DNA of 64,000 bases from Emiliania huxleyi CCMP1516 (GCF_000372725.1 NW_005201392.1:190521-254520), one strand, 5' to 3'; shown: positions 5,038 through 58,595, counted from the stretch's first letter. The notes: generated by a model not told the origin, from the letters alone. Made by a program: numbers and translations.

Positions 5038-6084
5038 TCACCCGACCCTCCGCTTCTTGCCTCGCCCGTCGGCCTCGCTGGGCGCAGCCGCCGCGGCGGG
5101 GGGCGAGCAGGCTGCGCAATACCAATCGCTCTCCGGGATGGCGGCGAGCGGCGGCGAGAGGCAGCCGAGGTGGAAGCCCTTGTTGCAGCCGTCGCAGAGA
5201 AGCATCCTCTCGGCGTCGCGCGGACTGCCGCACACCTCACACTCCTTGCCCACGATGGTGAGCACGTCCGCAGCGCTCACCGTCGACGTCCCGCCGGCCC
5301 CGTTTGCCGTCGGCCAGCAAGCAGCCCCGCGCCGGACTCCGTGGAGGGGGCAGTGCCGCTCGTGCCGCGGGCGCGAGCAGCGGGCGCACGGAGAGGCGGC
5401 GGCGGCGTCGGGCGAGGAGAGCACGAGGCAGTCACGCACATCCTCCGGGTGCAGCAGGTTGTGCTGCCTGAGGACCTCGAGGTGGGAGCGAAAGGGGGCG
5501 GCGAGGCCGCGGAGCTCGGCGGCGTGCTGGACCGCGAAGGCGCGGCAGAGGGCGGGCAGGCACCGGTCGCTCACCAGCCGGCTGCGCTCCGACCGCTGCA
5601 CCGCCCCGTTCCACAGATCCATAAAGGCAGCCTCCGCCTCGCCGACGCCGCGGCGGCTGCGGATGCGGTCAGCCGCCTGCTCGAGCTGCCACGCGTCCGC
5701 CTCGTGCCGCCACGACGGCGGCACGGGGTCCGCCTCCACCGGCCCCTCGCGCAGCGGCACGCCCCACTCGAGCGGGTGGTAGAAGCGTGCGAGGCCGCTC
5801 GGCAAGCGCTGCTGCGGCGGCGGCGGCGAGACTGGCCGCTCAGCGGCGACGGGCCGCTGCTGCTTCTTGCGCTCGCGTTGCTCCCGCTTCGATGCCTTGA
5901 TGGCCGCCGCCTCGCCCCGCAGCAGCTGCTGCGCCGCCTTTTCATTGTACGGCAGCTTGATGTTGTGCTCGCGGCGGCGTCCGAGCGAGGCCGCGTTGGA
6001 GCAGGGCCCGGCGTGAAAGTCGGCCAGCGTGCAGCCCGGAGTGCCGCACAGCCGGACGCCGTCGCCGCTCCAGCGCGTCGCCAT
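5038..6084 (-). CDS. VEFS-box (Suz12/EMF2/VRN2-like) protein with C-terminal PHD finger
   Basis: RFYH...EAAFMDLWN...VSDRCLPALCRAFAVQH...HLEVLRQHNLL...DVRDCL resembles the VEFS box. CEVC...MLLCDGCNKGFHLGCL..PL..IP..DWYCAAC is a canonical PHD finger. Confidence 0.75.
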   Translation of the reverse strand: MATRWSGDGVRLCGTPGCTLADFHAGPCSNAASLGRRREHNIKLPYNEKAAQQLLRGEAAAIKASKREQRERKKQQRPVAAERPVSPPPPQQRLPSGLARFYHPLEWGVPLREGPVEADPVPPSWRHEADAWQLEQAADRIRSRRGVGEAEAAFMDLWNGAVQRSERSRLVSDRCLPALCRAFAVQHAAELRGLAAPFRSHLEVLRQHNLLHPEDVRDCLVLSSPDAAAASPCARCSRPRHERHCPLHGVRRGAACWPTANGAGGTSTVSAADVLTIVGKECEVCGSPRDAERMLLCDGCNKGFHLGCLSPPLAAIPESDWYCAACSPPAAAAAPSEADGRGKKRRVG

Positions 6085-7306
6085 GAACGACTTTTGGCTT
6101 CCGCTGTTTGTTTTGGGGGGGGGGGGGGGGGGCAGGGGGCGCGGCCTGGGTTGTACGTGTTCGCCCCGCTCCGCGGATTTGGTAAAGTGGGAGGCCGGCG
6201 GCTCTGCCGCCGCAGGGGTAGGGGGGTAGGGGGTGGCCCCCCCACGCCCCAGATTGCGTAGGGCTCTGGGCTGGTTCTCGGCCCGAACGAATCCACAACG
6301 ACCGACGGCGGACCTGTCTGTGTCCGCTGCATGAGACGGGGGCGGCGCGCGCGCGGAGGGGCAGCGTGAGGTGACGTGTTACGGCTTCTGGAGGCACCTG
6401 GGGGTAGGGGGTGCGCGGGCGCGCGGAGGGGCGGCGGGGCGTGAGGTGACGGCTGACGCTGTCCGACAAACGCTACCGTTACAGCAATCTGGAGACCTGT
6501 GAGTAGTTGTCGTGCCGTGCCTTTAGTCCTTGTGCATCATCCTCTTTAGTTCAGTTGAAGTTATAAAATTCAATTCGGGGGCCTCCCTCATACCCGCCCC
6601 ACCCCAGTGAGGGTGGGAGTGTCGAGTGACAGTTAAGACCTCGTCAGAACGTACCGCGGTCGTCATTCACTTGTAGCCGTGCCAAATCCCGATACGTCGT
6701 CGTGCAGTGCCTTAAATTCAGCTCGTAATGTCCCTGTTTCGATTTTCGTACTCTTTGCGCAGCTCCTCGCGGCACATGGCCAGGCATATTTTTGCGTCGG
6801 CGCGACTCAGCTTCTTTTGTCAGAGTAGCATTGAATGTAGCAATCCTCACTCTTCTCATCCGGAAGGCCGACCTACAATTAGAGTGGTGAAGTCAAAAAG
6901 GAGATGAGCTGAGGTGTGTGTAATGAGCAGTCGAGCAGTGAGTGAGATTCGCGCCACCACTGCAATGGGCGGGTCGATGGGGTGTGCGAGTGCGAGAGAT
7001 GGGAGTGGCGAGAGGGGGGCACCACGCCGCACTCTCTGGAGGAGGGGAGGGGGGGAGGGGGGAGCGTGTCTGATTGGTGACAAGGCTCGCGTACGCCGAT
7101 CATGCGCACGCAGGATGGCCAGCTTCTGAGGCGGGCTGCTCTCGGGGTTCGAACGCCAGAGCCGGGATCCAGGCAGGGCCCTTGTGTGGCGGAGCGGGGG
7201 GGGGGGCACCGACGAGGTCAGCGCGTCTGCCTTGAGGACACGGAATCCAATGTCCGTCGGCGAGAGAGAGGGAGTCGGCGACGTACTTTTGCACTCCCCC
7301 AGTAGT

Positions 7307-14810: not shown

Positions 14811-17800
14811 ATGTCTGAGCTGCAGCAGGAGTTCGTTCGTGTCTGTGGGGAGGGCGCCTCCCCCCGGGTGGTCGAGGAGGGCTGGGCCGCGGTCCGAGGG
14901 CTTCTCGAGCAGAGGGACAAGCTGGCCAACCTGGCGAGCTGCGCGCAGGCGCAGACGGCGGGGGGGGGGCACACTCGGCAGCGCACAGCTCTTCATCCCG
15001 CGCCGTTCGGCCCCTCGCCGCACCCCTGCCGCCGCCGCGATGCGGCGCGCCCCGCCCCGCCGCCGAGCGGCCACCTTACACCGGGGCTGCCTCTTCCAGG
15101 CGCCCGCGTCGTTTGGCGCTCAGTTTGCGGCTGTCGCATACCTGACGGGCCTGCGGCTGGGCGAGCCGACACCCGTCGAGCGGCTGGTCCGGAATGCGGG
15201 GATCAGCGTCAAGGCTCGCGCGCGCCAACCGCCCTGCGCAGCTCCGCGGCTGCAGGCCACCAACCACCCCTGCTGTGCCGCAGGACTTTTTCGGCAGCGT
15301 AGAGGAGCAGCACCTGCGGCTGCACCCCGGCGAGCCGATTCCGGAGGCGCTGCGGCGGCTCAAGGAGCACTACATGGCCGCCACGGTCGCGTGGAAAAAG
15401 TACGACCAGCTCTTCGCCACCCTCTTCCCCTCTGGCTTTGTCGGCGCCGCCACCGCCGACCAAACGACGAGCGACGACTCAAAGCAGCTTGGCTGGTGCG
15501 CTTTCCTCGTCGCAAAGTGCCTCGTCTTCGGCGCCAGCGGCGGCGGGAACGTCCTCGACGTGTACCACCTCCTCGTCTGCGTCATCGAGCTGCTCCTGTC
15601 CCACCTCCCACTCGACGCCCGCGGCGGCGCAATCTGGCAGTCGCTCGGCGCCCTCGTGCCAAAGGAGCACTACCCGATGCCGGCGCCAGCGCGCGCCGCG
15701 CTGCACGCGGAGCTGAAGGCGGATCCGGACCGGATCTACAAGCTGGACTCGGCCGTCGCCAAGGTCTCGGCCGACCTGCGCGCCACCCTCGGGCTGCAGC
15801 AGGCTGCCGGCGGCCCGAGCAGCGCGCCCGGCCTGCTGCGCGACGCCGCCAGCCTGCGCAAGGCGCGCGAGGCAGTCGACGCGCGCTACGCCAAGCTCGT
15901 CGTCGAGACGAAGCAGCCGCTTGACGACCGCGCGCTCTCGAGCATCGCGTCGCTGCCGAGCGCGTCGGCTGCGGGCGGCGCGATGCCGCGCGGCGTCACA
16001 TCGCCTTGCCGCAGCAGCTCGGCGGCGTGCGCGCGGTCGGGCAACGCGGTGCTGATGACGCCGCTGCGCGACCCGAACCCGCCCTCGTCGCCCGCGCACA
16101 GCCACCTGATGGCGACGCCGATGTCGGGCCAGCTGGAGTGCGTCGGTTGGCTGCGCGCGGCCGTGCGCGGGGTCCCGGCGGAGGAGGCGTCTGAGGCGCT
16201 CGCCGGGTACTTTGCGCACTGCAGCGCCTCGCCCGCCGAGGCCATCGAGCAGCGGCTGGACGGGCTTTGCGACAAGCTGCGCGCGGCGGCGGGCGAGTAT
16301 GAGGCGGAGGAGATCGACGAGCAGTGCGTGCTCGGGCGCCGGCTCTACCACAAGATGCTGCTCGCCTTCCTCGAGTCGGAGGAGAGGCGGCTGCAGCACG
16401 GGCACTTTGTCGAGACGCTGCTGTCGCAGGGCATCTTCCACTCCTCACTCTTCGCCTGCTGCATGGAGTGCGTGTTCGCCTCCTACTGCATGCAGTCCTC
16501 GGTCTTCCCGCAGATCATGCACACCCTCGATCTCTCGCCCTTCGACCTGTACAAGGTGATCGACCCCTTCGTCAAGCACGAGCCCAGCCTGCCGCAGTAC
16601 CTGCGCGTCCACTTCCGCGAGGTGGAGGTCAAGATCCTCGAGCACATGGCGTGGGCGCTCGAGTCGCCGCTCCACGCGCAGCTGCGCGAGTACGACGCGC
16701 TGCTTGCGTCGCCGGAAGCGGCGGGCGGCGAGTCGCGCGCCGCCACCGCGCTGGAGCAGTTTCTGAAGAAGGTCAAGTATCTCGCGGCCAGCCGAGTGAA
16801 CGACCTGTGCCTCCGGCTGCTGCTGCGCAAGGAGCTGGTGGCGCAGATCTGGGAGTGCATCAAGGTGGTGGTGGAGGGGCCCGCGCGGCACCTGATGAGG
16901 GGCCGCCACCTCGACCAAATCATCATGTGCACCATCTACGGTGTGTGCAAGGTCAACAAGCGGCAGGAGGAGGCGCCAAAGACGTTCCGAGACATCATCG
17001 AGCAGTACAAGCGGCAGGACAAGGCGGCGGCCAAGGTGTTCCGCGAGGTGCGCATGGGTGACGCTGGGGAGCCGCCGCAAGACATCATCGCCTTCTACAA
17101 CAAGATCTTCATCCCGGCGATGAAGGCGCGCCCGCGCCGCCGCCCGCCCCCCCCCCCCCCCCCCGCCGTTTCCGCTGCGCAGTCGTTGGCCGCTTCCCTG
17201 CCCTCCTCTCCCTCGCCCCGACAGCGTCCCTCCGTTGCCGAAGGACCACCTGCTGCGCATCCTCGACGCGTCGCGCAAGCAGCAGCGCTCGCCCTGCTCC
17301 ACGCTCCAGTCCACTGCCGAGTCCGAGATCCGGCCGCCGAGCGGCGTGCTCGCGTCGCCACAGCGCGTCCTTGGCGACAGAGACGTCTTCGTGTCGCACC
17401 CGCGCACGCCAGTGGCGGCGATGACGCCACGGACGCGCACGCTCTACGCGTTTGGCGACTCGCCGTCCGGTGCAACCCTGCCGCTGCCGCTGCCCCCCGC
17501 TTCCCTCGCGACGCCTCCCTCGTAGCCGCCGCACGTGATGTGCATCGGACCACCCCCGCCCCACCCCCGGGATGCCTGTAGGGGGCCTCTTGCGCATCAA
17601 CCACCAGCTCGCCTCCCAGCCGAGAGACGGGTCCGACGCCGCGAACGCGCTGAGGGCCTTGTCGACCACGCCGTCGCACGGCGCCGCCAGCGCCGCGATG
17701 CCAGCCCCTGCGGCGGTGCCGGCGCCGGTCGAGCGCAAGCGGAGCCACGAGGGCGGGATGTCGAAAAAGCAGCTCCAGCGGCGGCTCGCCGACGACGGCG

Positions 17801-18091: not shown

Positions 18092-21000
18092 TAGGGGTCG
18101 GGACAGGTCGCCAGAAAAATAAATTCGAGCGCCCCAAAAACAAATAAATTCCAGGTCCCTAAAAATCCTCAAATCCAGCCTCGCTTCGACTTCGATGGCC
18201 TCCGACTCTCCGTCGCATGCGCGACCCGGCCGGGCTGGTCCGCTAGCCGCCCGGCCGATCTGCTGCGCTTTCAGGCGAGGTTTGGGGCACCACCGCGCCC
18301 TATGGCAGCGCTCCGGGGCCTCCGTTTTGCGCGGGAAAGGTGATCCGTGGCAGTTGGCGAGCTTTTCACTGGCTGCTGCAGCCCCTCCTCCTGATGCTTG
18401 GAGCGGCCCCTACCCAGCCCTACCCAGCGGAACCGACGCAGCCAGCAGGGGTGAAATTCTCAAAAAGGTGCAGCACTTCTAGCCGACATCGACAAAAGTC
18501 CCTCTCTAGCCCCGCGGCGAGCGGCCCCGCCGGAGGCGAAGAAAATTTCGCCATCTAGCGCTCGCAACACATAGATTTGTGCATAAATCAACACCTCCAA
18601 TCTTCGGGGGAGTGACGGATAAAGGCGTGCGAAAGAGCTAATGAATCCGAAAGCAGCGAATCCAAGTGATGGCCCGCCGCAGGCGAAGAAAATTTAGGGT
18701 TGGGGTTCCCCTATGCCAAAGAACTCTTATTAGAGGATTTCGGCGGCCGGCGCGCCGAGGCACAGCGGTTCGCGCTGCCTGCTCGCGCTGGTTACACCGT
18801 TGCTGTGGCCGTCTTCGTCCGTATTGTACACCGAGCTGGCGCCACAGCAGAGTACAACAACGGCTCGGACTAGCTGCTCCACGGTACTACATCATCAGAG
18901 GGCCCGGCAAGGTCCACGGCGGAGCTGGCGGTGGTGGGAGTGGTGGTAGGAACGAAGGCGCACCTGTCGGCGATTCACCGCCGTTCGTTCCCGTCTCTCA
19001 AAGCTGGTTACACCGTCGATGCGCACATCGAGGCGCTCGTGGACGAGAGAGACGTCGCCTCCTCTTTCGTCCCGGGGCACTGTTCACGCCGGAAGGCCCC
19101 GTACACTGCCAAGTACATTAGCCTTCATCTCTCCTACCGCCGGCCGGGAGTGCAGCCGCCACCAGTGAGATTGTCCTCGACGTTGGCACCTGCGAAGTAA
19201 TGAACAACAGGCAGTGCGTCATATGGCGCTATGATAGCCCTGCGGTGGACGTCCTCGACGCAGACGAGGCGGAGCTCATCTGCGCGGCGCAGATCGCCGA
19301 CTGTCTCTCCCTCCCTGCGCGAGTGGTTGCACCACCCTGGATGAGGCATCTGGGCTGGGGCAGGGCCGTTAGTAGAGGAGGGCGACTGAGGGCGCGAGGC
19401 CGCCAATCGTCAAAGTCTGCTGCGACTGACTGTCGGTCACTGACTGAGCAATGAGCAATCGCATCGGCGGTTTCACTCACGCTCACAATCGGGTTACATC
19501 CAGGTCTCTGTGCGGGATGTGCTGGGGGGCTGCCCCCCAGTCGATTGCCGCATAGTTCGTCGATGTAACCCTACCAGAAAGCTGTATTCACACCTACCCT
19601 TCCAAAAAAAGAAATGTCCCTGCTTTTGTCGAAGATCCGGCGGGTTTATCGGAGCATCACCCGCAGGTGTTTAGCGCCCCGCCCTTGGATCCACCCACAG
19701 TGCGGCCCACAGCCGCGTGCAGCCCTGCAAACTCACGCGCTCTGCGCCGCTCTGCGCAGGCGGGCCCGTCTGCCTGGGCAACAGCGAGCAGGTCGTCGCG
19801 AGTCTGCACTTCTTCGACTCCCTGTCCGACGAGCAGAAGCGGCTCTGGGAGAAGATGCAGTCGCCGGCCGCGCCGATGGCGGTCGAGCCCGAGGACAGCT
19901 CCATCTTTGCGGCCGCTCCCGCGCCACTCGCGCCGACGCCCGCTGGACCTTTCTACGCCCCGGGCAAGGCGGCGGCGACGGTGATCGAGGTGCAGGTCAT
20001 CGGCACACTCGTGCTGCTCTACTTCAGCTCGGACGTGCGCGCCGCGCAGCAGTGGGTGCTCAACGCGGAGAGCGACGCCGACCGAGTTGGCCGCTGCGGC
20101 CTCGACGGCCAGGTGTGGGCGCCGCCTTCCTCCTCTCCGACCTGGGCGACGCACGGCCCCGTTCTTAAGCCCCTCGACACCGCGCTGTCGGTCCGGATCG
20201 GCGGCGGCGAGGTCGAGACCGCCGCCGCCGTGGTGAGCACGTGGAGCGGCTCCGTCGGCGTCGTCACGCCAGCTCAAGTTGACGCTTACGTCGTCGCGCT
20301 GCGCCAGTCCAAGTCCAAGCGCAGGATCGCCGGGCCCGTGCGCGACATGAAAGGCAACGCGTCGCCGCGGCATGTGGCCGCGATCCCGGCGGTGGCGGCG
20401 CTGCTGCGCGTGAGCGGCCGAGTTCTTCGAGATCGTGTGGCCGTCCTCGCCACTGAGCCAACGTTCGAGCCGAAGTGCTCCAAGGCGGACCTGCACGAGC
20501 GTCTCGAGGCGGCGGAGCAGCAGAACACGGTGCTGCAGCAGAAGCTCACGCACGCGAACCAGCTCAAGTCGCAGGCGCAGCTGCTCGCCAAGGAGAAGGG
20601 CAAGATGCGCATCGCCGACACGGTCGCCGCGCAGGTCAGCAAGGTCCGCTCTCGCCTCGAGAGCGAGTACGACGACAAGCTGCTGCGCGAGAAGGCGCGC
20701 GCGCAGGGCGAGCTCGAGCGGGCGACCGCGGCGATGGAGAAGAAGCTGGTGCAGGCGAAGCGGCTGAAGACGGACGCGCACGCGGAGAAGCGGGGCGAGC
20801 GGGCCAGGGCGGAGGCGCAGAGCGAGCTCGCCGACACGCGGCTGGGCAAGTTGAAGGCGCTCAAGGATAAGCTGGCCGCGACGGAGGCGGAGTGCGAGGA
20901 GCTCAAGGCGCAGCCCGGCGCCGACCCGACCGAGATGGAGACGCTCTACGAGTCCCAGGGCAAGGTGCTCGCTATGGACGTGTGGGAGAGGGAGGCGCGC

Positions 21001-24000
21001 GGCGCGGGCGGCGGCAAGGGCGCCAAGAAGTTCGGCTTCCTCTGGCGCACTACCGCTATGGCGATGATGTCCAACATGACGCCGCAGTCCGCCGTGGTCC
21101 CGAACGTGCGCTGCGTCCTTCGCGCCGTCGCGCCGTGGCTCAACATCGACGAGCCGTCGTCACGCGCGCTGACTGAGTGGCGGTTCGAGTTGCGCTTCAT
21201 CGAGGAGGCGCTCGCCTTCATGGAGGTCGCCGGCGCGTACAGCATCCGCATGCTGGGCTTCGACGGTACGACCAAGTTCGGGAAGCCCATGATGACTTCG
21301 AACGTCGTCATCGAGCCCAAGAAGGGCGCCCCCCTCAAGGCGGTGATCCTGCGCGCCTCCTACCTCTCCCCGGACGGCACCGCCGCGGGCGAGGCCAAGA
21401 CGATCGAGACGAAGTGCTTTGCCCGCGGGCGCGACTTTATCAACCGGTTGATGCGGCGCTGGCGGTTGATGCACCCGGGGGTGCCGTGGCCCGGACCTGA
21501 GGCTGCCGCTCTCTCCTTGGCGCGGCTCGCAGGCGGCGGCGCGCTCATGTCGGACACGTGCGCCACGGCCGAGAAGACCAAGCGGCTGCTCTCCGAGATG
21601 ATCAAGGAGCAGGCGACGGAGATGGCGCGCGAGAAGATGGGCGACGCCTGGGACGGCCTCTCGGACGAGGAGAAGGAGCACGAGCTGCGCGTCCACCTGC
21701 TCGACTGCCACCAGCACATGCGGAACATCTTCCTGAAGGAGATGTCCGCCGCGCAGGCGCGGCACGTCGCGGAGGAGCTCAAGCCGCACTTGGACAACTT
21801 CAGCGCGTGGGAGCGGATGTCGACCGACTTCACGCAGCTGCTGCGCGCGACGTACAAGGAGCTGCACCACACGCAGCGCTACTACAAGGGCAAGGGCGTC
21901 GAGTTCTCGGCGTGGCTACTCGCGAACTACCCCTCCGCGTTTGCGATCCACTTCGAGCGCGCCGATGGCGGCCGCCAGGTGACGCGCCCACCGGATTGCG
22001 GCGTGTCTGATCTCCCCGCAATCTCCCCGCAATCAGCCGCGTCTCGCCCCGCAGGACCTCGACTACGACGCGGCCATCGCGATGTACGTCAACCGCAAGT
22101 ACATCGTCGAGTTCCTCGCCATGCTCGTCTTCTCGAACGACCACTCGAACGTCCTCGAGGACTTTCTGTACGTCTGCTTTACCGCGAACGAGTACATCGC
22201 CATGACGCGCGCGAACGCTGTCATCGACCTGCTGATCTCGCGTCCGTACCGCTGGCTCGCTGGCAACACGTTCGACACGTCAAAGCTTACGAACTGGTCC
22301 CCCTTGAGCATGAACCGCGCGCTCGACTGCGTGTACACCATCCTGGAGCGGGCGGCGGCCGACGGCAGCGTGCTGCTCGACTCGTCGCTCGACGTCTACG
22401 CCCCGATCACCGCGGAGCAGCGCGGGTTTGCCGAGTGGCGCAGCTACACGTACGAGGAGGAGACGGTGCTCGCCCCCGACGGCAAGACGCCGCTCCTGCT
22501 CTACAAGCTGGCGCTCGGCGAGCTCCTCAATCCGACCGACCCGACCAACATCGCCTCGCGCGCCAAGACGGTGGAGTACATCGAGGTGCAGGCGGCCGGC
22601 GGCCTGCTCAAGATTCGCGACACGAAGCTCGCGCTGGCCAAGCACGTGGCGGCGCTCGACGGCGCCTACGCGTACGAGGCGATGGAGCAGGCGCACGTTG
22701 ACACGATTGGCCTCGACGCGACCAACGACCGGCTGGCCGAGTCCGTCTTTGGCCGCGTCGACATGATCATGCGGCGCTACCCGGGCATCACCGTCGAGGC
22801 TGCTTCCGCCTTGGCGCAGGCGCTGTCGACGAAATCGTTCGAGTCCGACGGCGCCTTCTGGCAGTTGAGCCGCGAGATGCAGGAGGTGCTCCTCGAGGAG
22901 GCTCGGCTCTCGGTGCGCTCGGAGCGCGCCGTCGACCGGGCGCACCACAAGGCGCCGCTCTATCCTTCACCAGTAGCAGCCCGCCGGCGGGTAAGAGAGC
23001 GCGCTCCCTCCCTCCCTCGCCGCAGGAGCATGACGACTACGTCGCCCACAAGCGCAAGACCAACTCCCAGCTCGAGCTGGACGCGCTCGTCAGGCGCTAC
23101 GGCCTCGCGCTCTCCTTCTTCCAGCGCTGGCAGACGCGCGGCGTGAGCTCCATCCGCGAGATGACGGTCCAGCTCGCCAAGATCGCGGACAACCAGGACA
23201 AGCTCGATTGGCTCCGCGAGCAGTGCGAGATGCGGGTCATCGGCCTGAGCTTCAACTACAGGCTGCAGTGGGGCTCGAGCAAGGACGAGGACATCGGCAC
23301 CGTCGAGGACCTGACCGGCCACCTCAAGGAGATCCTCGAGGAGGAGCAGGAGCGGCGGGGCGCGTGCGAGCTGCCGGACCGCTGCCCCATCCCGACCGTG
23401 CGGCGCAAGACGTTCAAGGAGCTGGGCACGCCGACCGTCCAGGCGAAGGAGATTGCGAGCCGGGTCCAGGAGTACGGGGCGGAGGAGCTGCTGGAGCGGG
23501 CGGAGCGCGAGCGCGTGCGGCTCGAGGAGGCGGGCGAGATTGACCGCGTGGCGGACGGGCAACCCGACGACGCGCCGCCCTGCGACGACTCGCTCGTGTG
23601 GGCAGAGCTGGAGATCTGCTGGCGCTACTGGGTGCCTTACACCGACGCGAGCGGCAGGCAGCGCCGGAAGGGGGCGAAGATGTGGTGCCTCGGCACCGTT
23701 GTGCAGGTGTGTCGTCGCCCGACCAGCCGCCTCCCCATGCCACTCGTCCACCTCGCACACACTCATGCCACATGATGCTCACTGCGCCACACTCGCCCCA
23801 ATCGCGCAGATCGCCAACGGCACGACCGACAAGCAGGAGCCCGACAAGCCGAGGTGCAAGAAGCTCGCCAAGGCCGGCGCGGCGCGCATCCGTTGGCCGG
23901 CAGACGCCGAGCGCGACGAGCCCGAGTCGTGGTCATGGGAGATCCTGACCGAGGCCAACTTCAACGACGACGTGCACATCGGCTGGAGGCTGTCGGAGGG

Positions 24001-24269
24001 CGAGCTGCAGAGGCGCGCCGGTGCGCGCAAGGGGCGCGCGGCCATGTAGTGGCCCTCTAGAGGCCCGCGATCGCGGTAGAGCGCGCGTCCGCACAGCGCA
24101 GCAGCCGGAAAGTTGCACAATGTGTGTGTCCGTTGTGGGTGTCCCTGTGGTCGCCAGGCTGTCGCCATTGGCTTGTGTGACTGCCCGTGGCAAGTGCTTT
24201 GCGCGGGTGTACGAAATTAAGCCCGACGGCTTACCGCTAAAATCGCGGATTTTCCCCTCCCGACCCCTA
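18092..24269 (+). mobile_element. About 6.18-kb autonomous-type hAT-like DNA transposon
   Basis: 12-bp TIR TAGGGGTCGGGA (18092-18103) / TCCCGACCCCTA (24258-24269). TCTATAG is duplicated at 18085-18091 and 24270-24276. Contains a transposase gene. Confidence 0.85.
19760..24049 (+). CDS. DDE transposase (hAT-like) with N-terminal coiled coil; introns 21979-22054, 22952-23025 (GC-AG), 23707-23809; 5' exon(s) uncertain
   Basis: Candidate catalytic motifs LGFDGTTK, LMSDTCATA, CHQH (CxxH) and ATNDRLAESVFG. The three introns join the ORF pieces in frame without stops. Confidence 0.75.
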
Positions 24270-24452
24270 TCTATAGTCGCGTAGATCGCGTTTTTCGCGG
24301 CCGAACGAACGCGGCGCGCGGCTGCGTGCATCGCGTTCGCGACGCGCCCGGACCCCGGACCGCTTCTCGGCCCAGGGTGGTGCGGGGAGGCGCCCCGCCC
24401 CCCGCGGCCGCGAGACTGGCCGGGGACCGGGTGACCTCGACGTCCTCATCGC

Positions 24453-26341
24453 TCAACCTTGTCCTTGATCTTCGAGCAGCAACCGCTCGAGCAGCGCATA
24501 GTCCTTCGCGTACACCTCGCGCACCAGCGAGCGGAGCTCAGCGGACTGCTCCCACGCCGCCCGGGCCTCCGCCTCCCGGCTCGCGTTCTGTCCCGACTGC
24601 GGCGGGATCGCCCTCCGGTGATGGCCGAGGCGTGGCTGTGCGTGGCGGGCAAGCCGCGGCTCGGCCCGGAGGAGGCGGCCGTACTCCGCCTCGAGCGCCT
24701 CGAAGCGCCCCACAAAGTGGAGGGCGCCGGCCGCGCCGTCAGCGGGCAGGAAGCAAGCCTGCGGCCGAAAGTGGATCGGGACGCGCGCCCAGTGCCCCTC
24801 GAGGCGCTGCAGGTGGAGCAGGAAGAGCAGCGGGTCGGCGCCAAAGTCGCGACGGAGCATCTCCGCCTAAGTGATTGATAACTTGTCCGTGACCAACCAC
24901 TCTCTCAATCAGGCAGGGCCGCGGTGGAGCATCATCCGCCGCGAGAAGGTCGTGCGGTGACACGGCGGCGGCGGCGGACTGCGTGAGGCCGCGGAAGAGG
25001 AGGTAGTAAAAGGCGGAGAGGAAGCGGTCAAGAGGGTCGCGCACAAAGGCGAAACGGAAGGCGCCGTCGTACGCACGCGGGCCGAGCAGAGCGCGCAGCT
25101 CCGCCGCCGTGAGGTGCTGCGAGTAGTGGTCCTGCGCAAAGATCGCCGCCTCGAGGCTGGTGCCCGCGCAGCGCGGCACGTGCACAAAGACGGCGCGCCT
25201 GTTTGATTCGAGCACGGAGCTGACGACTCAAGAGTGAGACGCGTGCTCGAAAGGCGGCGCGCCGAGACGCGAAGCTGGCAGCCCACGCCGCCGACCTCCG
25301 ACCGTTGACGCAGCGGGAGAGCGGGTCCCACTCGGCCGGCGCGTGCGCGTCTGGCGCAGGCACGCCGTAGTAAAAGGAGAAGATCTGCGCGGGCGTCGCG
25401 CCGAGCTTGTGCCACAGCATCACCGCCTGGTTGATGGCATTCACTCTCCACACCTTGCCTCGCTCCCACCGGCGGGGCGAGCACAGCGCCGCGGCGTCGA
25501 GCGTGGCGATGCGCGCCGCTCCACCCGCCGTCAGCCTGCGGACCTGGTTGACGAGCATGTACTCCTCGAGGATGCACCTGGCGCGACGGAAGGCTGCTCG
25601 GCTGGTCTCGGTTGACCTAGGTTGGTCTCTCGGGTAGTCTCTCGGGTAGTCGCACGTCGGCGGATATCCCCCCAGCGCGTCCAGCGTTGCGCGTGTCGTC
25701 GCCAGCGCCTGGTCTCCGAACGGCAGCTCGTACCAGCGCGAGCGCAGGTTGACAGTCCACTCCATCAGCGCGAGGCCCGCGGGCGGCGAGTGCGCCTCGG
25801 CGAGCTGAGCGCGGTCGCACTGAAACGAGAAGGCCGTCATCAGCACCGCCCGGTCGGAGAGCGAGCGAAGCAGCAGCGCATCCCACAGCGCTGGCAGAGC
25901 CGTGTCGGCGTGCAGGACGAGCACGGCGTCGCCCGTCGCGTGCCGCACGCCGGCGCGGACGGCGGGCCCGCGCCCGCCGTGCGACGTCTCACGCAGGAGC
26001 CGCAGCCGCGGGTGTGCCGCCGACCACTCGGCGACAAGATCCATCGTGCGGTCGCGGCAGCCGCCGTCAACGACGATGACCTCGACATCGTCGAGCGATG
26101 CCGCGCCGTGGTGCAGCGCGTCGAGGCAGTGCCGAATGCTCCTCTCCTCGTTGTAGGTGGGCAGCACGACCGACACGGTGCGGAGGGGTGGCAGCGTGGC
26201 GGCTGGCGAATGCAGCGGCGGCGGAGGCCTCAGCCTTCCGAGGAGGCGGCGTATGGCGTCGAAGAAACCAACCTGGAGAAGCATGAAGGACTGCACGGCG
26301 ACTACGAGCAGGTAGTCGACGAGGCCTCCAATCGTCCGCAT
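24453..26341 (-). CDS. Fusion of GT2 glycosyltransferase (TIGR04283-like) and Sulfotransfer_2-type sulfotransferase; exons 26341-25656, 25577-25263, 25198-24940, 24866-24453 (557 aa)
   Basis: GT2 motifs VSVVLPTYNEE, VIVVDGG, LHADT, LPFGDQAL, LEEY, SPRRWE. Sulfotransferase motifs FVHVPRCAGTS (5'-PSB), FVRDPLDRFLSAF (3'-PB), HFRPQ, FVGRFE, VYAKDY. Exon lengths sum to 1674 nt, in frame. Confidence 0.8.
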
Positions 26342-26427
26342 GGGACAACACCCCGAACCCAAGCAAGACGCACAAGCACAGACAGTCGAGAAGCGCGAGA
26401 CAGACAGCGGCGACAGCACAGACAGTC

Positions 26428-26510
26428 GGGAAGGGAATTGCGGGGTCCCCACGGGGCCTCAGTTCGGCCCTCCCGAGGGGGGGAGGGGAGCAAGGGGGTG
26501 GGGGGATCGG
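26428..26510 (+). repeat. About 85-bp dispersed repeat, second copy at about 56880-56964
   Basis: GGGAAGGGAATTGCGGGGTCCCCACGGG..CCTCAGTTCGGCCCTCCCGAGGGGGG... is nearly identical at both loci. Confidence 0.85.
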
Positions 26511-26639
26511 GTACCAGCAAGGCGAATGCGAATTCTTCACCTTCCTCACATACCACCAGAAGACGAAGGCGGGCCTCTCTAATGCTCCCGCAACGCGCTG
26601 TCTGCACGGCCGGCAGCAGACGGGCGCCCACACGGTGGG

Positions 26640-27510
26640 AGGGGTCAGCGAGACTCAGCGCCGGCTGCGCTTCTTGGTCGGGGCCGGCGCAGGCGCAGCG
26701 AGGTGCTTGATAGTGCCGCCTTCCCCTTTTGGAAGCACTTTGGGCAGCACCAGGGGAAGCTCTTGTGCGCTTGAAGGACGGCTCCGGCCCTCGCTGCTCC
26801 CCAAGGCACGCAGGCGTGTCGTGGTAGATGCCGGCCTTGCAAAACGAGCAAGCGCGAAGTTCGCCTGCAGCCGACTTGCACTTGGCGCATTTGGCGCCGG
26901 CTGTGGCCGACCGCGCGGTGGTAGTCGCGGCCTCTAAAAGCTTGAGCGAGCCGGTGGCGATGAAGGCGCCGAGGGCGAACGGCGAGGGCTCGGTGAGCGC
27001 GGCAACGCCGCGCAGCTGGAGGTAGTACGGCTCGAACATCAGTCGCGCACCAGCGATGCCAAACGGCGTCCGCTTCTCCACCATGGCAACCAGAAGCGCG
27101 CAATCAAAGCAGATGTTGGCGGAGTCGAGCTTCTGGATGAAGGGCTCGAGGAAGAGGTGCTGCGTCGCGCAGGCCGGGTGCACCATCTTTGCGCACACGA
27201 AGCACTGGCTGGTCTCGACATCGGCGCGGTCCGCCACCTTGCAGCATGTCGCATAGCAGCACGCAGGCGAAGCTGTTGGCCCGGAGAAGGCGTCGCGAGA
27301 AGGCATCGCCGCCACCCGCCGCTCAAACTTGACCACCTCCTCCTTCGCGTTGGACAGGTTCTCGGGCGGCTCCCACGTCATGTCCGGAGTTTGGTCCCAC
27401 TCGTCCCACTTGACTGCATATTGCACAACGATGCCCTTGCGCGCCACGCGAGCCTCCCTCTTGGCGAGGACCAGCTCGACCGTGTACTGGTACTCGTCCT
27501 CCTGTGCGGC
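26640..27510 (-). pseudogene. Chromodomain plus two PHD-like Cys/His fingers; frameshifted near the 3' end, no clear start
   Basis: YTVELVLAKR...QYAVKWDEWD...TWEPPENL (chromodomain); CFVCAKMVHPAC...CFDC; CAKC...CSFC...YH...WCCPKC split across frames. Confidence 0.6.
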
Positions 27511-28464
27511 GGGGACGGTGCGCTCGCCGGAGAGCTATGCCCTATGCATGAAGCAGCCGGCGCGCCACCGCAGCTCAACGATGGAGCTTGTGCCGCGGCT
27601 CAATCCACAGGCGCAGCAGCATTGCGACGCATTCTCCAAGCACGGCCTCTGGCGTTGCGAGTGCACAGAGGGCGAGCAATAGTTGACAAAAGCACTGATC
27701 TGTGGGCAGCAGATCTCCATGTCGGTCGCGCCCTGCGAAAGGACAACCGCGGGCCGCGGATGCTTGCCCGGACGCGGACCCGCCGTGCGAGTTGCAGACC
27801 CGGAGGAGGCCGACCCAGCTCACCCCGAGAGAGGCCATCCGGCACCAACTTGATTCCTAGATCGGCGTCTCCCCCTCCCCCTATGTGCCGCCACCCCCCT
27901 CCAATCCGTAATTCCGTAAAATCGCGTGAAAAGCGCCCTAATCGAGCTGGGGAGCGGCCCCCAGCCGCCTGGGAGCGTGCCCCAGCTAGCGGGAGCGTTA
28001 GACGTACTTTTCGGCGTGAACATAGAACAAAGACTTGCGGCGACGCGCCCGCCGTCGATCGCCGGGCTGCGTGGCCAGACTCCTCCGAGGAGAGCGAGGC
28101 GGAGGAGAGCGAGGCGGGGGATAGCGAGGCGGAGACCGAGGCGGATGGCGAGGAGGCGAGCAGCGAGGAGGTGATCCGGACTCCCCCTCCCCCCCCTCTC
28201 GTACGCCGTCACCCGGCCGCGAACGCGTTTTCCGTCCGCCGTTTCATCGAGTTGCCCGAGTGGTAAAACCATCGTGGACGGTGACGGTGACGAGCTGGAG
28301 CTGGAGATCCCCGAGGGGGTGGTGGCGGGCGAGACCTTCTTCTACAGGATCGAGTAGCCTCCCCAGGAGAGGGAACGCTTTGTCATCCTCCCTGGAGGAG
28401 GGGGAAGGGGTGGGGGGGGGTTATGCCGGAGGAGTGGGGTGGGATATCTAAAATGGTATGAATG

Positions 28465-29269: not shown

Positions 29270-31098
29270 TCAGTGGTGGCGACTCTGTCCACGGCCGCCA
29301 CGGCCGCCACGGCCGCCGCCGCGACCGCCGCCCCGGCCCCCACCCGCCTGGCTCGCCATCCCTCGACCACCACGGCCAGCGCCACGGCCGCCGCCGCCAC
29401 CTCTGCCGCCGCCTCTGCCGCCGCCCATGGCGCCACCGCGGTTGCCGCCGCCGCCGCCGCCACCGCGCCCGCTGGGGCCTTTTGCGACGACTAGACCCGG
29501 TGTGCCGCGCAGGCCCATCATGCCGACCGTCTTGGCTTGGAGCGTGGGCACCTCGGGCAAGCCGAGAGCGCCGAGGGCAAACGCGTTGGCGGTGGCGACG
29601 AGGGTGCGCGCGTCCCACCGCATCGCCTTCATCTTCTGCTTGTAGTAACCGAGCCACGCCTGGTACGCCTTCTCGCGCGTCCCCACGTCGACCGCCTCGA
29701 CCGCACCGCACGCCTCGTCGCGCGCCGCGCCGACGGCCGCTGCCGACGGGCTCGCTTCGGTTATGGGCAGCCCTGCCAGCATGCCCATCGTCGCGCGCTC
29801 CTCCCACTCCGACAACAACAGCAGCGCCTGGCCCGACTTGCCTGCGCGCCCCGTCCGCCCCGTGCGGTGCACGTACTGCTCCCGGCTGTCGGGCGCGCCG
29901 AGCTGCAGCACGAGGGTCACGTCGGGGTAGTCGACGCCCCGCGCGGCCACGTCGCTCGCGACGAGCACGCCCTCGCGGCAGTCTCGGAACTCGTTGGAGA
30001 CGCGCGTGCGGTACGCCTGCGACTTGCGCGAGTGCAGCGGCGCGTTGCTCACGCCCATCGCTGTGAAGAGCTCTGAGACGAACTGCGCCTGCTCACAGGG
30101 CCCGCTGTGAAGAGACGCTGTTCAAAGCGCATCGCCGCGAAACGCCTCGAGACGAACTGCACCTGGTTGGCGGTGGGGCAGAAGACGACGATCTTGCCGC
30201 TGCCCGCGGCGTCCGCGAGGGCGCGGCGTGCGGCGAGGGCGGCGAGGGCAGGCACGGCGTTCATCTCGGCGGCGAGGTAGCTCTGCGCCACCTTGGACGC
30301 CGTCTCCGAGTCGGCCGCCGCGCCCACGCAGTCGATGACCCTGTGCCCGCGTTTGAGAGTCTGGCCGAGGACGGCCGAGAGCTCCGCAGGCATCGTCGCC
30401 GAGAAGCAGAGCGACTGACGCTCGCTCGGCAGCTTGGCCACGATCTGTCCAATCTCCCTCGCAAAGCCCTGATCGAGCAGCCGGTCGCCTTCGTCGAGGA
30501 TCAGCGTCTGCAGCCCGCGCAGCCGCGTCGCGAGTCCCTCGTTCTCCATGTGGTCCTTGAGCCGACCCGGTGTGGCCACGAGCAAATCGACCTCACCACC
30601 GAGCCGGTTGAGGTCTCGCTTCATGGGCGTGCCGCCGAATATGCACACAGCCTTGAGCCCGCTACCCGGCACCAGGCTGGCGGCGGCCTCGGCGATCTGA
30701 GCCGCGAGCTCTCGCGTCGGGCTCAGCACCAGTGCCCGAATCTGGCCCTGAGGTCGCTCGGACGTGCTCAGTCGGTGGAGCGTCGGGACGAGAAAGGCAA
30801 GTGTCTTTCCCGTCCCGGTGCGGGCCTTGGCGACAACATCTTCCCCAGCCAGCAGCGGCGGCATCGAAGCGCTCTGCACAGGTGTCGCGAACTCGTGGCC
30901 GAGTGCCGCGATGTTGCCTCGCAGCGACGACGAGATCTCGAGGTCTGCAAACCGCAGCATCTCCACGTCGGCGGCGGTGCGAGTCGCCGTGGCCAGCATG
31001 CGCGCTGATGCGCTGCCGCGTACGGCAGCAAGTCGCGTGAGCGCCGCGCTGGTGATCGCCGCGCCGTGCAGCACGGACAGCACGCGAAGGGCGCGCAT
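29270..31098 (-). CDS. DEAD-box RNA helicase (Mss116/CYT-19-like) with RGG tail, probably organelle-targeted; intron 30162-30089
   Basis: Q motif, ARTGTGKT, SPTRELA, ATPGRL, DEGD, SAT, SDVAARGVDYPDV, YVHRTGRTGRAG, AYQAWLGYY and a C-terminal RGG-rich region. Confidence 0.92.
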
Positions 31099-31959
31099 TT
31101 TCGTCGGGCAGCGGTGGCGGCGGCGGTGGCGCGCGGAGAGTCCGCGCACGCTGCTGCTGCCGCACTTCTTTTTTTTGGTAGGTTTGTTTCCGCGTGTGTG
31201 TGTGTGTCCGCGAGGAGGGCAGAGTTGCGCCGAAAGGCGGGCTGAAGCCGTGAGAGCAAGGATCGGCAGGCGGCGGCGGCGTCGCAGGACGAGGCAGAGG
31301 AGAGCGACGCGACAGAGGAAGACGCGACAGGAGGGAGAACGACGAGAGTGGGACGACCGCGACGCACGCTGTAGCGTCGCCGCCGAGGCCTCGGGCCGAC
31401 CGACGAGGAAGGCAGCGGCCTCTGCCGCAGGCAGGGCGGCGAGCCGCGAATACTGCCTCTCGAGCGCGTGCACTTGCTCCCACCGTGCTGCGCTCGCCTG
31501 CCCAAAGCCGACGTCCGGCGGCAGGGCGTGAGCCGTACCGGGAGCTCGGCTGCCGCAAGCCGCAAGCTCTGCGTCGACGCGTGCAACTGCGTCGGAGCGG
31601 CTGCACTCTTCGCGTGCGAGCGCATCGAGCGCGTCGACCGAGCGTACGTTCTCTCTAGTGAGCGCGAGTACCACCGCCATGTTTGCAGAGCTCGGCAACG
31701 CGCGACGCGGCCGTTTCATCGAGTTTCCAGGCGTACGTCCCCCGGGGGAGGAGGGGGGATTGGTTGGCAAAGCAGAGACATATGAAACAATTATTATATA
31801 AAATGAACTCGGGGGCACGGGACGCGGCACAATTATTACAAGCGTTCGCGAGTACGATCAAAAGTAGCGGCGCCGTTTTGTGCACACGACCATCTAGCCG
31901 TGTGTGCTGGCGTCCGGGTCCCAGCGGGTTTTCACGTAACAAGCACACACACGACCGCG

Positions 31960-36446: not shown

Positions 36447-36647
36447 GCCTGCATCAACCCCTTCTGTTCCTCCCTACCTATACCAAACCCCTTGGTGCTT
36501 GGATGGACCCTCTCGTCACTCGTGTGGACGCCGACCCCCTCCCCCTACGCGCCCGCCCCGCCCCCGCGACGCCCTGCCCCCTAACCGCCCTCGCGCGCGC
36601 GCATCATTGACTTTCCACTTCCTCACCGCCCCCTTCCGGCCGCGCAG

Positions 36648-37806
36648 ACACCGTCGGCAAAGAGATCGTCGACCTGGTCCTCGACCGCATCCGCAAGCTC
36701 GCCGACAACTGCACCGGCCTGCAGGGCTTCTTCGCCTTCAACGCCATGGGCGGCGGCACCGGCTCCGGCCTGGGCGCCCTCCTCCTCGAGCGGCTCTCGG
36801 TCGACTACGGCCGCAAGTCCAAGGTCTCCTTCACCATCTACCCGGCGCCGCAGGTCTCGACCGCCGTCGTCGAGCCGTACAACTGCGTCCTCTCGACGCA
36901 CACGCTGCTCGAGCACACGGACGTCACATTCATGGTCGACAACGAGGCGCTGTACGACATCTGCCGCCGCAACCTCGACGTCGAGCGCCCGACGTACACC
37001 AACCTTAACCGCCTCACCGCCCAGATCATCTCGTCCATGACCGCCTCGCTCCGCTTCGACGGCGCGCTCAACGTCGACCTGACCGAGTTCCAGACGAACC
37101 TGGTGCCTTACCCGCGCATCCACCTGGCCATCGCCTCCTTCGCGCCCATCATCTCGGCCGAGAAGGCGTACCACGAGCAGCTCTCCGTCTCCGAGATCAC
37201 CAATGCCGTCTTCGAGCCCGCCTCGATGCTCGTCAAGGTCGACCCGCGCCACGGCAAGTACATGGCGTGCTGCCTCATGTACCGCGGCGACGTGGTGCCC
37301 AAGGACGTCAACTCCGCCGTGGCGACCATAAAGACGAAGCGCACGGTCCAGTTCGTCGACTGGTGCCCGACTGGCTTCAAGTGCGGCAGTGAGTTGCCGC
37401 TCCCCGCCTCCAACCCAGCGCGCGCATCCCCCTCCCCGCCGAGCCGTTTATCCCTCGCCTCCCTAGCCGGAGCCGCTCTCACGTGCCGCCTCCCCCCCTC
37501 CCTCCCCGCGCAGTCAACTACCAGCCGCCCACGGTCGTGCCGGGCGGCGACCTCGCCAAGGTGATGCGCGCCGTCACGATGATGTCCAACTCGACGTGCA
37601 TCGCCGAGCTCTACTCGCGCATCGACCACAAGTTCGACCTCATGTACGCCAAGCGCGCCTTTGTGCACTGGTACGTCGGCGAGGGCATGGAGGAGGGCGA
37701 GTTCTCCGAGGCGCGCGAGGACATGGCCGCACTGGAGAAGGACTACGAGGAGGTCGGTGCAGAGTCGGCTGAGGGCGAGGGCGAGGAGGAGGGAGAGGAG
37801 TACTAG
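36648..37806 (+). pseudogene. TUBA: Divergent alpha-tubulin lacking recognisable 5' exon(s) (about the first 107 aa); intron 37389-37513
   Basis: [49 protein letters not shown]-terminal EEY. Begins at an intron acceptor; no MREC exon is visible upstream. Confidence 0.8.
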
Positions 37807-56691: not shown

Positions 56692-58595
56692 CTCTTCGCC
56701 CGCCACCCGCCGCTGCCGCACCTTCCGCACCACGCCGTCGCCGTCGCACCCAGAGTCGCCGTCCTCGAGGTCGTTCGCCTCGACGCCAGGGTCGCTCGAC
56801 CAGCGATCCGAAGAGTGGCCGCTATCTATGCGAGGGAAAGAGCGGGGCCCTCGACGCCTCTGTCCGGCCCTCCGAGGGGGGGAAGGGAATTGCGGGGTCC
56901 CCACGGGCGCCTCAGTTCGGCCCTCCCGAGGGGGGGAGGGGGAGCCAGGGGGTGGGGGGATCGGGGCGGTGGGGAGGGGTCTCGGTTTTGTGTGGCTAAT
57001 ACTTGCCTTTCGGGGAGGGGCCTCAGCCAAGCGCTCATCACATAAGTGAGAGCTGCCCGACGTCTTCCCCCCCTCCCTCGAGGCAGCGAGTAGGCAGCGA
57101 GTGGAGGTCTCGAGCGCCTATACGACAACACTTTCAGAAATGGATTGTCGACGCAAACGGCAGGCCCGAACGTGCTCGAAGAGACCGACTGGACCCATTG
57201 TTCAGATCTTTCGGCTCGATTGGGGTTCGCTCCGCCGCCGACGCTGGTGCGACAGCGACGAGCATCAACACGATGGCTCTTGACGCCGACACCTTCTTCC
57301 GCGTGCTGCTTTTCTTGGTAGAAAAGCTTTGGGACGTGGACACGGCGCCCAGAGAGGGTGATGACGCGAACGCGGAACTCGAGCAATTCGTGCAGGATCG
57401 CTGGCGTCTCTGCAAACTCCTCAATCCCCATGATCGGCTCTTCAAGCAGGGTACTCCAGAAGCAGGTCTCCGGGGGCCGCTTTCCCGCGGTGCTTTGCTC
57501 TTTCACCTTCGCCTCAAGCAGCGGGCAGACCCCACGGTACTTCAGCTCGCGCCCATGGACCCAGTCCCTGTGTTTGGGGTGCACACCAGCCGTCCAGCCG
57601 GCACTCAGCTCTCACCCCGTCACAGCTAGCAGTAGACATTGTTCGGTAGGAACGCGGTGCGAAAGCGATCGAAAGCGCGACCGAAAACAAAGAAATGCGA
57701 CTCGCTCACCCGTCACAGCAGACAGGCTCTCTCTCACAGCAGACAGGCTCGACACAGCTCACAGGTGCGGGCTGGCGCGTGCTAGCACTATCACAGGCGA
57801 ACCACCGGAGCCGTCAGAAGAAAACCCGCTGAGAAACACGGCTTGAGCACTTGAGCACTGGAAGGGTCGATTCCGCGTGGTACTGGGCTGGGTTTTTAGG
57901 CATTGTGGGGTTGGCACTCCCGTCGACCCTCATGACCTCCTGCGGTCTCTGAGATGGACACCAGTAGGTGTGGGACCATAGCCAGGGTACACTCGAAGGC
58001 TGGGTTAGCAGTAGAGGTCGATACTCGACGCGTCCCACATGGTCTGTGTCGCTGTCGGCACGCTGTCGACAGGACGTCGAGCGACACCGGTGGCAGTGCC
58101 ACCCAGGAGTGGTCGGGCGGTCTCCCGTCATGAGAGAGCCACCATGTGATCCGTATGATGATTCCTGACAACCGCCTCAGTCAACTTTCGTCACAGTTCC
58201 CGCTCTGAGAGGAGCTGCGGGTCAGTTCGACAGCTGGAGCTGTGTCGCCGGCGTGCAGCGGCCTGCCTCCGGAGGTGCCTCTGAGGTGGACATTTTTTGG
58301 TCACCGCGAGAGAACGCGTTCGAATTTTTACTCCGGAACTTCAACTCTGCACGCGCACCGGCCAGGGCTACATTAGTGCCAGTGAGGCGGAGGCGCGAGT
58401 CGGAAGGCCGCGACCGTCAAGTGTTCCCTTCGTTTTCCTACAATCGCTGTGAACCCAGCCACGTACGAGACCCCTCGACCGTCTCGCCCTCCCTCTCTGG
58501 TGTGTTCATTGGGGGGGGGTCACAACAAAGACGGTACAGGATCGAGCACGGCTGCTCAGAACGAGTGCAGGTGGGGACCCTGTCCTCCTCTCCCC
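54037..58595. mobile_element. About 4.5-kb element with about 160-bp imperfect TIRs (Mutator/Pack-MULE-like); right TIR split by a nested insertion at 57884-58462
   Basis: 54060-54157 is inverted at 58463-58560, and 54160-54197 is inverted at 57842-57876. GTAC is duplicated around the nested insert. Confidence 0.7.
56260..56820 (-). pseudogene. Chromodomain gene fragment inside the TIR element; intron 56535-56449
   Basis: FDIERILDSK...YYLILWKGYPPDVSTWEPESQI. Confidence 0.7.

Follow-up and report, generated by a model that had tools for sequence, protein, structure and literature searches.

A gene on the minus strand of the window, the 64,000-nucleotide stretch of Emiliania huxleyi CCMP1516 DNA analyzed here, is predicted to yield, after splicing, a single protein that joins a GT2 glycosyltransferase (GT) to a sulfotransferase. 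Judged by homology, this fusion of GT2 to a Sulfotransfer_2 domain is real and is conserved in related algae. We consider it possible, at somewhat less than even confidence, that this one membrane-anchored protein, combining a TIGR04283-type glycosyltransferase with a PAPS-dependent sulfotransferase, catalyzes the final two steps in the making of sulfated arsenosugars.

Reading along the minus strand from position 26341, a GT2 open reading frame (ORF) is followed by two further ORFs in other frames. This agrees with the preliminary description, which had placed the GT2 and sulfotransferase domains in separate frames and had joined them in frame by removing a 64-nt GC-AG intron (25262–25199). 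The intron is present, and the join aligns without gaps to five fused homologs. The same description attributed a 557-aa product to this intron alone. The length is correct, but it requires three introns: removal of 25262–25199 by itself yields 512 aa, leaves a 26-aa insert in the GT2 domain, and loses the sulfotransferase frame, whereas additional removal of 25655–25578 and 24939–24867, neither of which had been mentioned, gives exactly 557 aa ending at the stop codon 24455–24453, in four exons without stop or frameshift. The three motifs singled out previously, LHADT, PFGDQ, and SxRRW, lie in the spliced model at residues 143, 207, and 262 (the last as SPRRW).

Table 1. Features of the predicted gene, in window coordinates
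Feature	Position	Strand	Description
Exon 1	25656..26341	-	ATG at 26341; aa 1–229; hydrophobic helix and most of GT2; PF00535 78.7 bits, TIGR04283
Hydrophobic helix, VQxFMLxQ type	26276..26332	-	aa 4–22; likely membrane anchor; Kyte-Doolittle 1.94
GT2 domain, TIGR04283 type	25364..26176	-	aa 56–300, spans intron 1; LHADT, PFGDQ, ILEEY, CSPRRW, FYYG
Intron 1	25578..25655	-	Predicted; in-frame GT-AG intron of 78 nt; the 26-aa insert that its retention gives is lacking in all spliced or intronless homologs
Exon 2	25263..25577	-	End of GT2, linker, and start of sulfotransferase (WxxxSRCxNG)
Intron 2	25199..25262	-	Predicted; 64 nt, GC-AG; removal joins the GT2 and sulfotransferase frames
Exon 3	24940..25198	-	Both PAPS-binding motifs; ORF containing exon 3 matches PF03567 at 30.1 bits (cut-off 22)
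Presumed 5'-phosphosulfate-binding loop HVPRCAGTS	25156..25182	-	aa 340–348; kept in 12/12 rows
Presumed 3'-phosphate-binding motif RDPLDRFLS	25015..25041	-	aa 387–395; kept in 12/12 rows
Intron 3	24867..24939	-	Predicted from homolog alignment; 73 nt, GC-AG; removal restores the frame to give 557 aa
Exon 4	24453..24866	-	C-terminal half of sulfotransferase (HFRPQ, YAKDY); TGA stop 24455–24453

The predicted introns have a GC content of 0.55–0.64, below that of the exons (0.70–0.72), in a window of ∼65% GC. GC-AG donors are the majority class in E. huxleyi, at 56%–65% in the accessible text of PMC4028052. The acceptor at 25199 has 16 in-frame donors available and that at 24867 has 8; with only the chosen donor scored at each junction, 24 residues align to the five homologs with 13–17 identities and no gaps for intron 1, 12–20 identities and no gaps for intron 2, and 11–13 identities with 0, 0, 0, 3, and 1 gaps for intron 3. 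All three predicted junctions fall where the five fused relatives have little or no insertion. On the strength of these alignments, we judge the three-intron model to be beyond chance. Another contig, L006, is 99.4% identical over 1961 nt and has the same gene structure, and all nine near-identical database proteins are unspliced ORF calls. We dropped VVSSVLESNRRAVF as a separate start of the sulfotransferase: it lacks a Met, and the homologs follow the spliced path.

The bifunctional architecture proposed earlier is matched in five relatives (P0003, P0004, P0005, P0008, and P0009) that encode PF00535 and PF03567 in one ORF, one of these clusters having 43 members. On an uninterrupted DNA contig, a single stop-free frame covers both domains (L005:6–1763). 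Over gap-free columns, the window model is 63%–68% identical to the fused relatives in the GT domain and 56%–62% in the sulfotransferase; its nearest named relative is Chrysochromulina. The GT2 region, used as query, retrieved 62 proteins out of 7997 candidates.

The preliminary description had assigned the GT2 domain to TIGR04283 by eye. This family (the NCBIfam equivalog "arsenosugar biosynthesis glycosyltransferase") is indeed the top NCBIfam match of the window ORF, at 136.7 bits with the next family at 51, and no GT2 family scores better; the score, obtained on the unspliced ORF, falls below the family cut-off of 182 bits. The general GT2 profile PF00535 is matched well above its cut-off (78.7 against 23.3 bits). 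TIGR04283 is likewise the best family for all 14 eukaryote-type relatives scanned (128.9–162.4 bits) and matches four further relatives (111.7–160 bits), each below 182. Profile positions 1–221 are covered in 12 of the 14 relatives and 1–219, 1–209, or 7–221 in the remainder, and the atlas neighbors of the GT2 domain include TIGR04283 clusters. H-x-D is kept in 21/21 eukaryote-type rows and 50/50 others (followed by T in 21/21 and 40/50), GDQ in 21/21 and 49/50, and RR in all 21 eukaryote-type rows. The acidic ED pair, whose Asp we take to be the catalytic base from its role in GT2 enzymes, is ED in 49 of 50 other rows but EE in 19 of the 21 eukaryote-type rows, including the window. An invariant Cys precedes SxRR in eukaryote-type rows, where others have Thr or Val. 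The N-terminal segment is more hydrophobic in 11 eukaryote-type GT2 relatives (Kyte-Doolittle 1.55–2.26) than in two bacterial ones (at most 1.49), and in P0005 it is modeled as a long helix. A membrane-type helix together with Asp-to-Glu at the putative base, neither of which the preliminary description had noted, would also be compatible with a lipid or glycan substrate. The AlphaFold model of P0005 (pLDDT 78) has a GT-A fold (Z 18–19; against 8viw, Z 19.3, rmsd 3.2, 234 aligned; Foldseek E 1e-10 to 6yv7).

In an IQ-TREE quick tree of 73 rows, sampled with a bias toward near relatives, the 21 eukaryote-type rows and P0023 form one clade (SH-aLRT 99), situated among TIGR04283 rows in a weaker branch (87) rich in DUF2064-fused bacterial forms; two rows are long-branch outgroups whose placement shifted in a larger tree. 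A FastTree of 192 rows contains a 103-row eukaryote-like clade (support 98) that includes both fusion types described here and a member, P0280, that is itself a GT-DUF2064 fusion. The window GT2 shares with TIGR04283 the best match, full profile length (in its relatives), H-x-D, GDQ, E, and RR, and position in the tree. It differs in its score below the cut-off, the N-terminal hydrophobic helix, the Asp-to-Glu change, and the invariant Cys of CSPRR, and as a spliced eukaryotic gene fused to a sulfotransferase, with no operon partners nearby. From these comparisons, the domain descends from the TIGR04283 group and appears to work like its members, but it scores below the family cut-off.

Other fusions and extensions were seen in the same searches. 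A Nannochloropsis TIGR04282-TIGR04283 fusion (P0120, P0031, and P0032) exceeds both cut-offs and is separate from the clade studied here. Fusions of DUF2064 and GT2 also occur on long contigs of the marine invertebrates Branchiostoma floridae and Tubulanus polymorphus (P0291 and P0302; XP_035676070.1 and XP_074659432.1), in a 5-row branch of their own; from these, animals may hold part of an arsenosugar-type pathway. A diatom-like-looking branch of 25 rows within the same GT2 clade (P0310, P0315, P0320, P0322, P0329, and relatives) has, in 18 rows, an unannotated N-terminal extension of ∼150–250 aa with an RRLASL-type motif.

The assignment of the second domain as a sulfotransferase is upheld by a Sulfotransfer_2 profile search (PF03567, 30.1 bits for the exon-3 ORF against a cut-off of 22), by both PAPS motifs, and by the sulfotransferase fold of a relative's model. 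All six fused relatives examined exceed the same cut-off (22.9–53.2 bits); the exon-4 ORF scanned alone has no Pfam match. WxxxSRCxNG, SQH, H(F/L)RPQ, and the two motifs that we take to bind the 5'-phosphosulfate (HVPRCAGTS) and the 3'-phosphate (RDPLDRFLS) are present in 12/12 rows, and YxxDY in 11/12. P0106 and P0365 are stand-alone members of this sulfotransferase subfamily, the former with its own N-terminal hydrophobic segment. The AlphaFold model of P0106 (pLDDT 70) superposes on 5t03 with Z 10.2 and rmsd 3.6 over 170 aligned residues. Its best folds are heparan-sulfate enzymes (Z 10.2 and 9.0), with HS6ST, HS2ST, and 3-OST closest, and every one of its top 21 VIA-align rows is a fold of the sulfotransferase family; Foldseek rows are weak (E 0.085 or above). 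The window domain resembles the carbohydrate sulfotransferases HS6ST (5t03) and HS2ST (3f5f) in PF03567, both PAPS motifs, and fold, but is 12%–14% identical to them, carries the subfamily-specific WxxxSRCxNG and HFRPQ motifs, and lies C-terminal to a GT2 domain. The sulfotransferase profile had no significant match in PDB sequences, only 3 proteins came up when the region was used as query in a second search, and viral relatives, at 20%–35% identity, are uninformative on substrate.

One fused lineage is interrupted. Four contigs (L001–L004) matching a Chrysochromulina tobinii/C. parva cluster (KOO27153.1) have an in-frame TAG in the linker (L003:10913–10915), and the annotated Chrysochromulina proteins of that cluster end there. 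Past the TAG, the sulfotransferase is open and 82% identical to P0003 (92% for the GT), and relative-rate tests detected no decay (p 0.33–1). An open sulfotransferase without excess change implies that the stop is recent or bypassed. A 48-nt GT-AG intron could bypass it but would remove the conserved FYYG, and is unlikely. C. tobinii and C. parva live in fresh or brackish water; a link between the stop and low sulfate is a guess.

A second fusion occurs in the same GT2 clade. A profile search of 50%-identity representatives gave 1522 matches at E 1e-30 or better. By our own profiles, the best 150 of these comprise 119 GT-only proteins, 24 with DUF2064 and GT, a single GT-Sulfotransfer_2 fusion, a single stand-alone sulfotransferase, and 5 proteins that carry another N-terminal domain, ∼430 aa long; three of these five are from Artemidia motanka, Chrysophaeum taylorii, and Pelagophyceae sp. 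CCMP2097. This domain has LGLxRGGTT, NEPS, and KEVxNK in 5/5 and an RNP..Q.ESR pattern in 4/5, the fifth having RNP in the alignment. Three of the five match Sulfotransfer_3 (PF13469) at 14.5–14.6 bits (E 0.04), below the cut-off of 27. In 50 bacterial genomes, the best match of the domain (L197, E 1.6e-8) is without a sulfotransferase Pfam match, and the second best (E 0.003) is a true PF13469 protein, to which hhalign aligns it over 103 columns covering both motifs (48% probability, E 2e-4). The domain had no identifying match in PDB sequences, PHROGs, or the Sulfotransfer_2 alignment. We regard the domain as probably sulfotransferase-like. At the cyanobacterial locus L197:23–2904 (G040), an HMGL-like/TauD fusion adjoins a 474-aa protein without Pfam match that resembles this pelagophyte-type domain.

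A single clade for both fusion types is rejected (p-AU 7e-5, 32 rows) in a test whose groups were set by architecture and which was run after the 192-row tree had been seen. The pelagophyte/Artemidia proteins (KAJ8601019.1, KAJ1461478.1, and EP01065 P006276, annotated as hypothetical or GT2-like) share the GT2 clade, helix, and motifs of the window protein; in contrast, their added domain, which weakly resembles Sulfotransfer_3, lies at the opposite end and has a separate origin on the GT tree. Two separate fusions on one GT2 clade, one to a sulfotransferase and one to a probably sulfotransferase-like domain, suggest that sulfation likely accompanies the GT product, and the two likely represent convergent coupling.

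We infer a link between the window gene and arsenic by association only. An alignment of the closest bacterial GT forms was used to fetch prokaryotic loci; in the best 80 of 585, scanned with our own profiles, the flanks carry DUF2064 in 44, ArsS in 11, ArsM in 6, and a sulfotransferase of this type in none; in the subset of 37 loci of at least 19 kb, the corresponding counts are 17, 7, 4, and 0. Of the 80 genomes, the first 50, many of them related cyanobacteria, were searched for ArsS (TIGR04167); 40 contain it, against 1 of 14 controls. In four genomes (G004, G031, G033, and G035), the ArsS matches contain a single in-frame TGA, in keeping with the selenoprotein label that TIGR04167 carries. 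When 101 of the 181 ORFs from 14 bacterial metagenome loci were scanned against NCBIfam, ArsS was found in one, and some bacterial TIGR04283 genes lie in non-arsenic contexts (L029 and L037), next to a radical SAM enzyme of another type and a lycopene-cyclase domain. When limited to longer proteins, an ArsS search gave 5968 matches; among the 120 listed, none is labeled eukaryotic, and ArsS-DUF2064 and ArsS-methyltransferase fusions occur. Our own profiles found no ArsS, ArsM, or DUF2064 in any six-frame ORF of at least 40 aa in the window, nor in 15 eukaryote-type GT loci; a methyltransferase near the GT on L010 has no NCBIfam match at E 1e-18 and no ArsM match.

The neighbors in the window are housekeeping genes and repeats, annotated by a scan of 86 of 187 ORFs of at least 150 aa picked by composition, which likewise showed no ArsS, ArsM, or DUF2064. 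They include retinoblastoma-like (15146–17578), VEFS-box/PHD (5041–6378), DEAD-box helicase (29273–31857), and tubulin (36611–37561) genes. The gene itself is flanked by likely mobile sequence (26342–27534 and 19675–24281). The end of an upstream chromodomain ORF (26428–26511) recurs at 56880–56965 beside another chromodomain ORF, other alleles have different sequence directly before the ATG, and the 3' flank diverges from L006 at ∼24281, ahead of long unannotated ORFs.

In the pathway that we propose, the window enzyme would act late. ArsM and ArsS start arsenosugar synthesis and lead to an arsenic-adenosine intermediate (PMC8552651 and PMC12159101, in the text available). The Synechocystis PCC 6803 ArsM-ArsS pathway would supply this precursor; those enzymes account for the first steps, and aglycone attachment and sulfation are unassigned in the available text of the same sources. 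After removal of adenine, a partner enzyme, probably of the TIGR04282/DUF2064 family, would convert dimethylarsinoyl-ribose into an activated nucleotide sugar; DUF2064 proteins have weak CofC matches. The GT2 domain would catalyze inverting transfer of the activated arsenoribose, possibly at a membrane, to an acceptor of glycerol type. With PAPS as donor, the sulfotransferase domain would sulfate either the product of this transfer or, in advance of it, the acceptor, giving a sulfate-ester arsenosugar. The known compound has the beta-riboside configuration and carries its sulfate at the glycerol position.

Outside the gene itself, an E. huxleyi arsenic methyltransferase appears in a published AS3MT tree (PMC5398495, as far as available). 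Sulfate arsenosugars are known algal products, commoner in heterokonts such as diatoms, and arsenolipids are major algal products (accessible text of PMC10456119). In the literature searched, with subscription journals outside it, we found no data on arsenic speciation or arsenosugar sulfate in haptophytes; the occurrence of sulfate arsenosugars mainly in heterokonts fits the pelagophyte fusion, not these absent haptophyte data.

The arsenosugar reading is favored by the family match, the kept H-x-D, GDQ, and RR, the clade position, the DUF2064 fusions of P0280 and Nannochloropsis, and the co-occurrence with DUF2064 and ArsS in bacteria, and further by the likely twofold coupling of sulfation to this GT, the known algal sulfate arsenosugars, and the E. 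huxleyi arsenic methyltransferase. It is weakened by the missed cut-off, the Asp-to-Glu and Cys changes, the 119 GT-only proteins among the best 150, the occurrence of sulfate arsenosugars mainly in heterokonts, the non-arsenic contexts of some TIGR04283 genes, the weakly identified second domain, the relatedness of many of the 50 ArsS-searched genomes, and the lack of such a sulfotransferase in the 80 bacterial loci, and because the role of TIGR04283 is given by the family name. Further points that weaken it speak at the same time for a Golgi-like type II membrane enzyme, or a lipid-facing one, that places an ordinary sugar and sulfate on a glycan or glycolipid, its arsenosugar ancestry being no guide to its job: the closest sulfotransferase folds are the heparan-sulfate types HS6ST, HS2ST, and 3-OST, stand-alone P0106 has an N-terminal anchor, as in Golgi glycan enzymes, and the 64-kb window and 15 eukaryote-type loci hold no arsenic genes. 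The N-terminal hydrophobic helix of eukaryote-type rows, the altered putative base, and the clade-specific cysteines would also fit such an enzyme, as would the sulfated polysaccharides of coccoliths and the differential expression of glycosyl- and sulfotransferases in G. huxleyi (bioRxiv 2024.05.26.595999, in the text available). However, the GT retains the family-specific H-x-D, GDQ, and RR, with no drift to a generic GT2, and one clade member is fused to DUF2064; we consider a glycan or glycolipid substrate less likely than the arsenosugar reading, but a strong rival to it. A role in coccoliths would leave the range of the fusion unexplained, since it also occurs in Chrysochromulina, which is non-calcifying.

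The membrane helix is also consistent with a GT2 that transfers the arsenosugar to a lipid acceptor, giving an arsenosugar phospholipid or related arsenolipid, with a sulfotransferase that makes another sulfated arsenical, for example a ribose-sulfated one, or has an unrelated substrate. Arsenolipids are major products in algae (PMC10456119, accessible text), the 119 of the best 150 family members have no sulfotransferase, and the Chrysochromulina stop cuts off the sulfotransferase and leaves the GT intact. Against this, the two likely independent recruitments of sulfotransferase type argue for a shared substrate, and a phospholipid acceptor would block the glycerol position at which sulfate is carried in the known compound; we consider a lipid acceptor improbable. 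Very improbable is the absence of any fused protein in this strain, whether the two domains belong to neighboring genes, the allele is inactive or remains unspliced, or nearby repeats silence the gene. Splicing is a prediction from homology, high intron retention is reported in E. huxleyi (available text of PMC4028052), a Chrysochromulina relative is split by TAG, other alleles differ just upstream of the ATG, and the 3' flank leaves L006 at ∼24281; but single-ORF fusions exist in five clusters, including that of 43 members, the junctions align at homologous positions, the four exons are free of stops and frameshifts, and L006, 99.4% identical over those 1961 nt, shares the structure. Returning to the arsenosugar reading, we put forward more tentatively a broader form of it: the fusion would be the missing terminal enzyme for algal sulfate-ester arsenosugar, the eukaryote-like clade the algal arsenoribosyl-transferase, haptophytes and pelagophytes would have fused two different sulfotransferases independently, and the C. 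tobinii/parva stop would be a natural switch from sulfated to unsulfated product.

The preliminary description knew of no described enzyme for this step, and our search of the literature, with most specialist subscription journals outside it, also found neither this fusion nor an arsenosugar sulfotransferase described, and no paper on TIGR04283; the terms DUF3641 and DUF2064 are absent from seven supplements of PMC4028052. The fusion is conserved and apparently undescribed, a variant within a known enzyme family. Also new here is the pelagophyte/Artemidia fusion of a different, probably sulfotransferase-like domain to the N terminus of the same GT2.

Most algae turn seawater arsenic into arsenosugars, which enter seafood (PMC5387034, in the text available). 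Published enzymes cover only the first steps, ArsM and ArsS (PMC8552651 and PMC12159101, as far as available), and the fusion would make the late steps directly assayable, with a candidate aglycone transferase and a candidate sulfotransferase in a single gene that can be tested as soluble domains. GT-only relatives, the stop-split allele, the stand-alone sulfotransferase, and the second fusion type offer natural controls, and the genes may serve as markers from which the arsenic species of plankton could be predicted. Even with a substrate that contains no arsenic, the fusion would represent an undescribed family of sulfated-glycoconjugate enzymes of microalgae.
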